Positions 33,781 through 34,698 of a stretch of 64,000 nucleotides of DNA are shown piece by piece (positions within the stretch are counted from its first letter, which is position 1; every line of letters starts with the position of its first letter). Below the pieces are notes generated by a model. That model did no database searches, was not told where the DNA came from, and was given only the letters and a program-made list of their open reading frames with translations. The stretch is from Promethearchaeota archaeon. Its GTDB lineage: Archaea; Asgardarchaeota; Lokiarchaeia; Sigyniarchaeales; SOKP01. The position numbers and the translations under genes were made by a program. The DNA lies in assembly GCA_013375475.1 (NCBI GenBank), contig JABXKD010000004.1:10659-74658 (forward strand), read 5' to 3'.

Positions 33781-34404
33781 TTACATATCAGCTTCAGGAG
33801 CAAAAACTGCCGTATAAACCAATTTTCCTATTGGTTCTTTATTAATTAACTCTTTCATCCGTGATTTGACTTGTTTTTTATGTTCTTTACCTAAAATTTC
33901 TTTATAGTAGCTAGTCGCTCTTAATATGCTAAGGAAATACATGAATGTTTTATCAGGTACATTGTTATTTTGTAAAAGAACTTCTTTTAACTTATTAATA
34001 ATCTCTTCACTCAGGTCATGATTGAAATTTAACACTGTAAAAGCATATGTTCTTGCTAATCTTACTCTATTAAAAGACAAATTCATTAAGTTTAAAGACT
34101 CTAAATGCTCTATGAAGAGTGGAAATAAATATTCACCTCTTTTTTTAAAAAAAAATTTTTTAAAATAGAATGAAACTTTTTTATTCGTTTCGAATTCTGA
34201 GATTATCGATAAAGCCCCATCAAGATAAGAGTCTCCCGTTGAAGTGGTATCAATTAAATTCATTCTAGATCCAATAATTTCTACTTTCATTTTGATTATC
34301 AAATCCATTAATACTGCTCCATATATTCCCGCTTCCTCGATATATGCAGAACTTTTCGCTTTAAATAAGACATGCATATCGGAAACCAATAATGATGATA
34401 ATAT
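33781..34404 (-). CDS. GPP34 / GOLPH3 (Vps74)-like family protein
   Basis: GIYGAVLMDLIIKMKVEIIGSRMNLIDTTSTGDSYLDGALSIISE matches the family core (GAxLxEL....gri........v.d..pTGdplLD.aL..i). The C-terminal helical part is also colinear. Start set at ATA 34404, 6 nt after GAGGGAGG. The track start TTG 34389 is 21 nt from that SD. Confidence 0.55.
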   Translation of the reverse strand: MLSSLLVSDMHVLFKAKSSAYIEEAGIYGAVLMDLIIKMKVEIIGSRMNLIDTTSTGDSYLDGALSIISEFETNKKVSFYFKKFFFKKRGEYLFPLFIEHLESLNLMNLSFNRVRLARTYAFTVLNFNHDLSEEIINKLKEVLLQNNNVPDKTFMYFLSILRATSYYKEILGKEHKKQVKSRMKELINKEPIGKLVYTAVFAPEADM

Positions 34405-34698
34405 GATTATCCTCCCTCTTTTTTCACTTAAAACTTATAATATGATTATGAACTAAACAGATAATTTAGTATATAAACTTATTAAGACGGAAATTAAATA
34501 ATGCTAATTATGTTTAATAAAAAACTGATAACGATATGGCGCTGGCAATGAAATTAATGTAGAATAAAAGCTCAATTCTTCTAAAAAGTTCTACTTGATA
34601 ATCAAAAAAACTCGATATATAACCTTTAAATGCCTAAAGATATATATAAGCAATGAATATTATTCTACACTTTTGTATCAAATAGGAAAGTTAATCAC

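Follow-up and report, generated by a model that had tools for sequence, protein, structure and literature searches.

ATA, ATT and ATC (together ATH, or AUH in RNA) are listed, beside the canonical starts ATG, GTG and TTG, as alternative start codons in mitochondria and Mycoplasma, in NCBI translation tables 2-5 and 11. In Escherichia coli and its relatives, infC starts with AUU or AUA and pcnB with AUU, and N-terminal proteomics of Deinococcus deserti found non-canonical starts on dnaA (ATC), rpsL (CTG), infC and Deide_03051 (PMC2830850). For archaea, reviews of initiation name only AUG, GUG and UUG and describe Shine-Dalgarno sequences (SDs) as rare in Lokiarchaea (PMC7531240, PMC12993045), and ribosome profiling of Haloferax volcanii placed about 30% of putative alternative start sites at near-cognate codons (PMC7261190). 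Across 61,358 AUG starts of other prokaryotes, a survey of start switches counted 363 to GUG, 113 to UUG and 1 to AUU (PMC5622118). No report of ATH starts in Asgard archaea was found in the literature searched. Here, we analyze a 64-kb stretch of Promethearchaeota archaeon contig JABXKD010000004.1 (the window), for which a sequence-only reading had proposed that AUA and AUU serve as initiation codons behind SDs. Comparison with related loci makes it highly probable that, on SD-led messenger RNAs (mRNAs) of the Promethearchaeia/Lokiarchaeia lineage, AUA and AUU (and AUC in relatives) are true initiation codons, and we hold ATH initiation to be about equally well founded for at least four genes, encoding a Zn-ribbon protein, an AAA+ protein, IorA and an ABM-fold protein.

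The likeness to infC and pcnB lies in a near-cognate AUH codon after an SD, served by the initiator tRNA, conserved across species and missed by naive gene calling (PMC2830850). Those are, however, single genes with a known autoregulatory logic, IF3 discriminating against its own AUU, whereas here at least five unrelated ATH genes occur in a single 64-kb window of an archaeon with eukaryote-type aIF1, aIF1A and aIF2, and no regulatory logic is evident. As in D. deserti, conserved N-termini are restored only by accepting ATC, ATA or CTG, and the starts are conserved in related genomes (PMC2830850); there, however, the setting is bacterial, four genes per genome are concerned, termed 'unusually important', and the proof is proteomic, whereas our cases amount to about 5 in about 55 genes and are known from sequence comparison. 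Near-cognate initiation in eukaryotes and Haloferax likewise engages the initiator tRNA at codons one base from AUG, but mostly at alternative or upstream, low-use sites chosen by scanning or context; here ATH would be the only possible start of conserved main open reading frames (ORFs), positioned by the SD. Canonical start turnover in archaea shares the lineage-wise switching and the association of weaker codons with better-conserved SDs (PMC5622118, PMC7531240), but at the start columns of the SD-led families studied here ATH is at least as frequent as GTG/TTG. Unlike the mitochondrial and Mycoplasma codes, finally, this free-living archaeon uses the standard code and shows no code change.

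The window has a G+C content of 28-36% and holds about 55 protein-coding genes, whose protein homologues come from Promethearchaeota/Lokiarchaeia-type Asgard metagenome-assembled genomes; the closest genome found is that of 'Promethearchaeia archaeon ABR11', whose ABM protein is 98% identical. Most window genes begin with an ATG straight after AT-rich sequence, without an SD, and a minority carry clear SDs of the GGAGG, GAGGTG or GGTGAT type. An SD-anchored scan covered the window and 112 Asgard loci, 603 kb in all; SD spacing is given as k, the distance in nt from the T of GGT in the SD to the start codon. tRNA and Rfam scans of the window returned no matches, and ARAGORN, run on all loci, detected no gene for an initiator tRNA in the window or elsewhere. 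Five sites of the sequence-only reading, in the GPP34, ABM, Zn-ribbon, GDPD and DUF4184 genes, lie at the coordinates given there.

The Zn-ribbon gene encodes a protein that resembles the N-terminal half only of transcription factor S (TFS).
13213-13218, minus strand: SD GGTGAT of the Zn-ribbon gene (from the sequence and its relatives)
13204-13206, minus strand: ATT, proposed initiation codon of the TFS-N-terminal-like Zn-ribbon protein (ATG in 43 of the 57 related loci with a readable start)
12952-13206, minus strand: Zn-ribbon coding sequence (CDS), 84 codons plus stop (Pfam Zn_ribbon_RPB9 and NCBIfam TFS_arch, N-terminal half only)

Here GGTGA (13218-13214) is followed after 7 nt by ATT 13206. 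The geometry and the ATT were as first described; the accompanying statement that the 93-codon frame has no ATG, GTG or TTG at all was not, as it contains a TTG at +29 and a GTG at +54, both past the first CxxC pair. A full-length Zn-ribbon protein is thus, judging by this frame, beyond the reach of a caller limited to ATG, GTG and TTG. A metagenome scan yielded 61 loci, and in the 57 with a readable start the start column is ATG in 43 and TTG in 4, with an ATG two codons upstream (MP[VI]KFC) in another 3. Four loci (L066, L010, L012 and L052) have ATT like the window, with no in-frame canonical codon upstream and intact ORFs of 82-88 codons. The window with L066, L010 and L012 form one clade, inside which the ATG loci L009 and L011 are nested, a probable reversal from ATT to ATG, and the ATT of L052 has an independent origin, which gives two to four origins of ATT. 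Codons 2-29, upstream of the first canonical codon and containing both CxxC pairs, differ among the window, L066, L010 and L012 by 6.5-7.5 synonymous changes over 13 sites and 5.5-6.5 nonsynonymous changes over 71 sites, a ratio of proportions (pN/pS) of 0.13-0.18; over the whole gene, the ratio is 0.13-0.23 at a synonymous divergence (dS) of 0.43-0.67 in the ATT lineages. These codons are under purifying selection, so that translation of the gene begins in the ATT region. The C-terminal motif KISAQDRKAFEEFF..GGAE.Y, too, is highly conserved in about 60 Loki-type loci (window, L009-L069).

An account that keeps to canonical codons would have the start codon lost and initiation moved to the next ATG, GTG or TTG, the conserved upstream codons being a recent relic or a conserved 5' untranslated region. 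For the Zn-ribbon gene, this would place the start past the first CxxC pair, yet codons 2-29 evolve under the constraint just described. The same conflict is sharper in an AAA+ gene (AAA_5/CbbQ_C, 410 codons), which, like the iorA case below, was added by the SD-anchored scan and lies near the ABM gene in L072, L074, L075, L077, L089, L099 and L101. All seven lineages have an SD, then ATT or ATA, then TCT GAT at its head; the L075 copy has a TAA stop immediately before ATT ATA. Leaving aside a GTG inside the L077 SD, no in-frame canonical codon is met until 24-157 codons past the ATH, and in six of the seven lineages the first one also lies past the Walker A motif (residues 42-49); the seventh, L089, has a TTG at about codon 24. 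Codons 2-100 nevertheless show a pN/pS of 0.05-0.18, while synonymous change is near saturation and reaches 48 of 64 sites. Public gene calls for this protein are truncated at the N-terminus, to 373 amino acids (aa) in L099 for example. On this comparison, the AAA+ gene is the strongest case, with an ATH start that appears ancestral, stable and needed by the protein.

A second gene added to the original list is iorA, encoding the alpha subunit of indolepyruvate:ferredoxin oxidoreductase.
63594-63600, minus strand: SD AGGAGGG of iorA, within the 3' end of the upstream POR-gamma-like ORF (from the scan)
63582-63584, minus strand: ATT, proposed iorA initiation codon, overlapping the upstream TAG (AT-T-AG) and placed by homologue N-termini
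61683-63584, minus strand: indolepyruvate:ferredoxin oxidoreductase alpha CDS, re-called, 633 codons plus stop (NCBIfam TIGR03336, E = 4.6e-208; profile position 2 = residue 13)

AGGAGGG (63600-63594) precedes ATT 63584 by 9 nt, and the resulting protein is a full-length match to IOR_alpha whose N-terminus equals those of its homologues in length. The conserved xPGxK..LLGNEAIARG (PGKK) segment lies upstream of ATG 63539, where a relocated start would omit it. The upstream POR-gamma/IorB-like ORF overlaps iorA by one base (AT-T-AG) within the region 61683-63999 (minus strand), an arrangement in the order iorB-like, then iorA, that suggests translational coupling. Repeated start-codon loss, which the sequence-only reading had kept as its alternative, thus fails for the Zn-ribbon, AAA+ and iorA genes because an essential or conserved N-terminus under purifying selection lies upstream of the canonical codons.

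For the ABM-fold gene, the candidate start is an ATA.
52789-52795, minus strand: SD-like AGGGGAT of the ABM gene (GGTGAT in relatives)
52781-52783, minus strand: ATA, proposed ABM initiation codon (a column of ATG, 14 loci, or GTG, 2 loci, in relatives)
52502-52783, minus strand: ABM-fold CDS, 93 codons plus stop (AlphaFold2 and Foldseek)

AGGGGA (52795-52790) stands 6 nt before ATA 52783, and the first ATG is at 52720. In the AlphaFold2 model (pLDDT 95), whose top Foldseek matches are the ABM proteins Rv0793, TT1380 and LsrG, residues 2-8 form strand beta1 and residues 15-29 helix alpha1, so that the first ATG (M22) falls inside alpha1. Database proteins come in three called lengths, 93 aa (M[FY]xH...), 89 aa (from Met5) and 72 aa (from Met22; about 20 clusters). 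At the DNA level, we compared 23 Asgard genome loci, six further contigs and the window, and in every case codon 1 sits 5-7 nt after the SD. It is ATG in 14 loci, GTG in 2, ATA in the window, L070, L071, L099/L100 and L101, ATT in L073, L085 and L096-L098, ATC in L076, and GTC in L074 and L075. According to the trees, these non-canonical starts have at least five independent origins, and their SD matches are longer than those at ATG starts (p = 0.002). In the window, L096, L099/L101 and L074/L075, no canonical codon precedes Met22, codon 5 of the window being ATC rather than ATG, and between the window and L074/L075 codons 2-20 show a pN/pS of 0.15-0.20, equal to that of the rest of the gene. 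A move of the start to the next canonical codon would again have to begin these proteins inside alpha1 (L096, L099, L101, L074 and L075 lack Met5), although the SD stays 5-7 nt from the ATH and is stronger than at ATG starts.

Relocation has points in its favor in the GPP34/GOLPH3 and DUF4184 genes.
34411-34418, minus strand: SD GAGGGAGG of the GPP34 gene (identical in eight independent window-clade contigs and in the ATG-type orthologue L115)
34402-34404, minus strand: ATA, proposed GPP34 initiation codon (aligned with the M of MLSSLLVSDMY; fixed in 8/8 clade contigs)
33781-34404, minus strand: GPP34/GOLPH3-family CDS re-called from ATA, 207 codons plus stop (Pfam PF05719, E = 2.6e-11)

GAGGGAGG (34418-34411) is followed after 6 nt by ATA (34404-34402) and the codons TTA TCA TCA TTA TTG. 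The first in-frame canonical codon is TTG 34389, five codons on and 21 nt past the SD, followed by ATG 34377 at +9, from which gene callers begin and obtain 198 aa (P0001). The PF05719 match scores 44.4 bits against a cut-off of 29.1, with residues 35-211 covering profile positions 26-199 of 201. Among the 20 homologues found, 6 begin MLSSLLVSDMY where the window has I-LSSLLVSDMH (P0004, P0005, P0007, P0008, P0010 and P0011), and the three closest (86-95% identity) are called from the downstream ATG. Eight independent contigs from different samples and assemblers, covering the three closest variants, share GAGGGAGG-ATA-ATC-ATA-TTA; the ATA is clade-fixed and not a read error, since it is identical in all eight. 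ATG-type relatives read GAGGGAGG-ATG-AAT-ATG-TTA (L115) and GAGGAAGG-ATG-AAC-ATG-TTA (L111), that is, a start context of GG-ATG-AAY-ATG-TTA as against GG-ATA-ATC-ATA-TTA in the window clade. Relocation draws support here from the nearby TTG and ATG and from databases calling the ATG.

28964-28968, minus strand: weak SD AAGTG of the DUF4184 gene (same register as AAGGTG in relatives)
28954-28956, minus strand: ATT, proposed initiation codon of a DUF4184/YdjM-like membrane protein (aligned with the M of MP[ILFA]TPLHYP)
28393-28956, minus strand: DUF4184 CDS, re-called, 187 codons plus stop (Pfam PF13803, E = 1.4e-7)

In this gene, ATT 28956 immediately precedes PFTPLH, as the sequence-only reading had it; its statement that no SD is present needs correction, given the weak AAGTG at 28968-28964. 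The M column of the family reads as follows.
L102 and L104: AAGGTG + 7 nt + ATA
Window: AAGTG + 8 nt + ATT
L107: TGGTGT + 6 nt + CTG
L109: GTGAT + 5 nt + GTG

In about 45 of 120 clusters, the called start is the Leu codon of TPLHYP or a later one, and many DUF4184 genes have TTG or ATG at that Leu, a second point in favor of relocation. Upstream extensions in database entries (MNYFNKKDWRCLK-I-P...) were considered as real starts and set aside as more likely caller artefacts, because a stop closes the frame in the window, L102 and L104. Taking all six genes together, we regard a move of initiation to the next canonical codon as unlikely.

Initiation at ATH, in turn, agrees with the alignments throughout. 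Orthologues carry M at the same column (MLSSLLVSD, MKFCPDC, M[FY]xH.SIH and MPxTPLHYP), with upstream residues conserved, and the start column of the canonical orthologues holds ATH in the GPP34, Zn-ribbon, ABM and DUF4184 genes; the iorA ATT gives a family-typical N-terminus. In the sequences compared, the orthologous start column is taken by ATH, its distance from the SD being fixed, across lineages and assemblies, and codons that can be translated only from ATH are under purifying selection. The proposal that AUA and AUU are initiation codons is thereby supported: as to what the sequence-only reading had named as refuting it, orthologues do conserve the upstream codons, the ATA and ATT codons recur in independent assemblies, and in-frame ATH is enriched at the SD-defined position in the 603 kb scanned.

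Isoleucine codons are abundant at 32% G+C, and by chance alone they would often follow SD-like motifs; any ATH falls within the SD window in 28% of control frames. One proposed site was of this kind: position 21534, read as an ATA in a start-less ORF, in fact reads TAT, with the nearest ATA one base off, and is considered a chance case because its frame of 31 codons has neither homology nor an SD. Against such an origin of the remaining sites, among long ORFs with an SD before a head free of canonical codons, 21 of 64 have ATH in frame where the SD would place the start, compared with 12 of 128 positions out of frame, a 3.5-fold enrichment (binomial p = 3.5e-4; homologous sites are counted within these site-level statistics, which weighs against taking the value at its face). 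A cruder Fisher test of any ATH in the SD window against control frames, superseded by the in-frame versus out-of-frame test, was marginal (odds ratio 1.67, p = 0.05), also an unfavorable point. ATH moreover matches the orthologous ATG column in five families, and the spacing is tight, 8-10 nt: k is 9-10 for the non-canonical starts of the Zn-ribbon and ABM genes and 8-9 for AAA+ (in relatives), whereas Zn-ribbon ATG loci mostly have k = 14 (Mann-Whitney p = 0.008 versus non-canonical). An SD lies 5-9 nt upstream at all ATH sites, weak in the window DUF4184 and ABM genes. We consider a chance origin highly improbable.

Errors of sequencing or assembly, RNA editing, or a code in which ATA means methionine have in their favor only that ATG to ATA is a single G-to-A change. 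The same ATA and ATT codons recur in independent ENA, JGI, Logan and NCBI assemblies and are therefore not read errors, in keeping with the eight GPP34 contigs from different samples and assemblers and with many loci of the other genes. ATT and ATC are used besides ATA, and the residue aligned with an internal ATA is Ile in 61.5% of cases and Met in 3.5%, just as for ATT and ATC, so the genetic code is not reassigned and a Met-coding variant of ATA was rejected. This group of explanations has next to no probability left.

It could also be that the start codons decay independently in a genome accumulating dead genes. Evidence of this kind exists in the window, most clearly in the third copy of a GDPD gene.
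15952-16677, plus strand: GDPD copy 3, AAGGAG + 5 nt + ATT, with in-frame TAA 16102-16104 (probable pseudogene)

AAGGAG (15941-15946) with ATT 15952 after 5 nt had been listed as a further instance; the geometry is there, but the case was rejected as evidence for ATT initiation on account of the nonsense codon in the window and a frameshift in L042, whose orthologue (minus strand, about 3121-3498) reads GAA in place of the TAA but is itself frameshifted further on. GDPD copy 3 is probably a decaying paralogue, and it counts against our interpretation as an example that these genomes do contain pseudogenes. Three GDPD paralogues stand in tandem around an LRR gene (13552-16677). A separate LRR-type ORF (35321-36034, plus strand) has an in-frame TAA at 35666-35668 (...CIPK*LCALTHL...), after which the frame continues; it is either a pseudogene or a readthrough site and, under the former, would fit a decaying genome. 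By contrast, neither relaxed selection nor a frameshift or premature stop was found in the Zn-ribbon, ABM, AAA+, DUF4184 and iorA genes: none of the ATH lineages of the first four has a broken ORF, pN/pS is far under 1, and ATH is shared across deep divergence, with dS up to saturation, without frameshifts or stops. Independent decay of these genes is very unlikely.

How AUH could serve as a start is suggested by the SD. The SD would pair with the 3' end of 16S rRNA (consensus AGGAGGTGATC) and so place the P-site codon 8-10 nt downstream of the T of GGT, equivalent to a gap of 5-6 nt behind GGTGAT or of 7-9 nt behind GGAGG. The CAU anticodon of initiator Met-tRNA may then bind through codon positions 1 and 2, with a mismatch tolerated at position 3; both the involvement of initiator tRNA and the use of Met are assumed in this scheme. 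A long SD at exact spacing would make up for the weak codon, with an initiation efficiency presumably below that of AUG. In a genome of about 32% G+C, changes from ATG to ATA or ATT would arise easily and, in SD-led genes, be nearly neutral or lower expression; in the majority class without SDs (leaderless-type), they would not be tolerated, and ATG would be kept. An automatic start-column census over ORF families, in which antisense shadow ORFs and misaligned paralogues caused noise, counted ATG at 177 starts without an SD versus four apparent ATA exceptions, two of which have ATG as the next codon. An LRR 'ATA' match of this census was discarded since ATG follows directly, as were ORF families c22 and c36, which are antisense. 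Leaderless initiation, with AUG near the mRNA 5' end and no SD, does not describe the ATH sites, as judged from sequence.

Further points weigh against AUH initiation or its simplest form. All support comes from comparative genomics, and the SD consensus AGGAGGTGATC was taken from general knowledge and from the motifs before ATG starts. In the ABM gene, the members of the window clade (clade A) other than the window keep ATG at codon 5 (L070, L071, L073 and L076), as relocation would have it, and in these members the codon-5 ATG could be the real start; the window lost this ATG recently, given that the 98%-identical L070 has it. For GPP34, codons between ATA and ATG vary within the ATA clade by one synonymous and one nonsynonymous change, too little for a measure of selection, and the start of this gene may have moved to the nearby downstream TTG or ATG. 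Two codons fall outside a simple rule of third-base mismatch. GTC stands at the SD-spaced ABM start column of L074 and L075 (position 5001), with two mismatches to AUG and no other canonical start, and the real start of these two may be an ATT two codons downstream; CTG occupies the corresponding DUF4184 column in L107 and L108 (about position 2940), again with no other canonical start. ATH starts account for about 5 of about 55 window genes (about 9%) and for about one third of the window's SD-preceded starts. Frequency estimates are biased, because the loci were gathered around already suspected families.

Beyond these genes, the scan returned ATA starts in single lineages for an alpha/beta-hydrolase (L082), an NMO/FabK-like gene (L109) and a CCG-domain gene (L072). 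The alpha/beta-hydrolases form tandem arrays of three to four paralogues (window 42688-45299, minus strand; L078-L092) that start with ATG, TTG or GTG, the L082 copy having ATA after GGTGAT. One extra candidate in the window is unconfirmed.
48521-48535, minus strand: AGGTGA + 5 nt + in-frame ATA 48523 (geometry as at the other ATH starts)

It belongs to a 786-aa gene (46172-48532) whose called start, GTG 48532, falls within the SD-like AAAGGTGAA. In-frame GTGs inside an SD, here and in L077 and L082, may be real starts, but such a GTG would have no SD of its own. The MFS gene (21550-22869, plus strand) has no ATG near its head, its first canonical codon being TTG 21631, 7 nt after GGGGAT and 27 codons into the frame. 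A 1320-aa protein (2673-6635, minus strand) with a C-terminal TRAP-beta/DUF11/CARDB-like domain starts with GTG 12 nt after AGGAGG, and the next gene upstream encodes a 999-aa FtsX/MacB-type permease.

Callers restricted to ATG, GTG and TTG were expected to truncate or miss such genes, and they do: current calls include the 72-aa ABM, 198-aa GPP34 and 373-aa AAA+ proteins and DUF4184 proteins begun at an internal Leu codon. What is lost comprises the first 37 residues of the AAA+ protein (in three lineages callable only without Walker A), the full-length Zn-ribbon protein, the conserved IorA N-terminus and strand beta1 of the ABM protein, with GPP34 and DUF4184 proteins shortened. The turnover of start codons seen here is orders of magnitude off the published prokaryotic baseline, in which AUG changed to AUU once in 61,358. 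Somewhat more tentatively than for the individual genes, though still with the balance in its favor, we propose that third-base start discrimination is relaxed throughout Lokiarchaeia/Promethearchaeia, with exact SD spacing in place of full codon-anticodon pairing, and that AUA, AUU and AUC (perhaps also CUG and GUC) start about 5-10% of genes, or roughly one in three SD-led genes. Asgard proteomes would then be systematically mis-annotated, with proteins truncated or missing, including eukaryotic-signature families such as GPP34, the gene inventories on which eukaryogenesis studies draw would inherit these truncation errors, and the reported rarity of SDs in Loki genomes would in part be an annotation artefact. 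Frequent and stable AUH initiation would be unusual given the eukaryotic-type initiation machinery, and it raises the question of how far SD anchoring relaxes start-codon proofreading by aIF1 and aIF2; the closest archaeal relatives of eukaryotes would then offer a natural system for the stringency and evolution of aIF1/aIF2 start selection.

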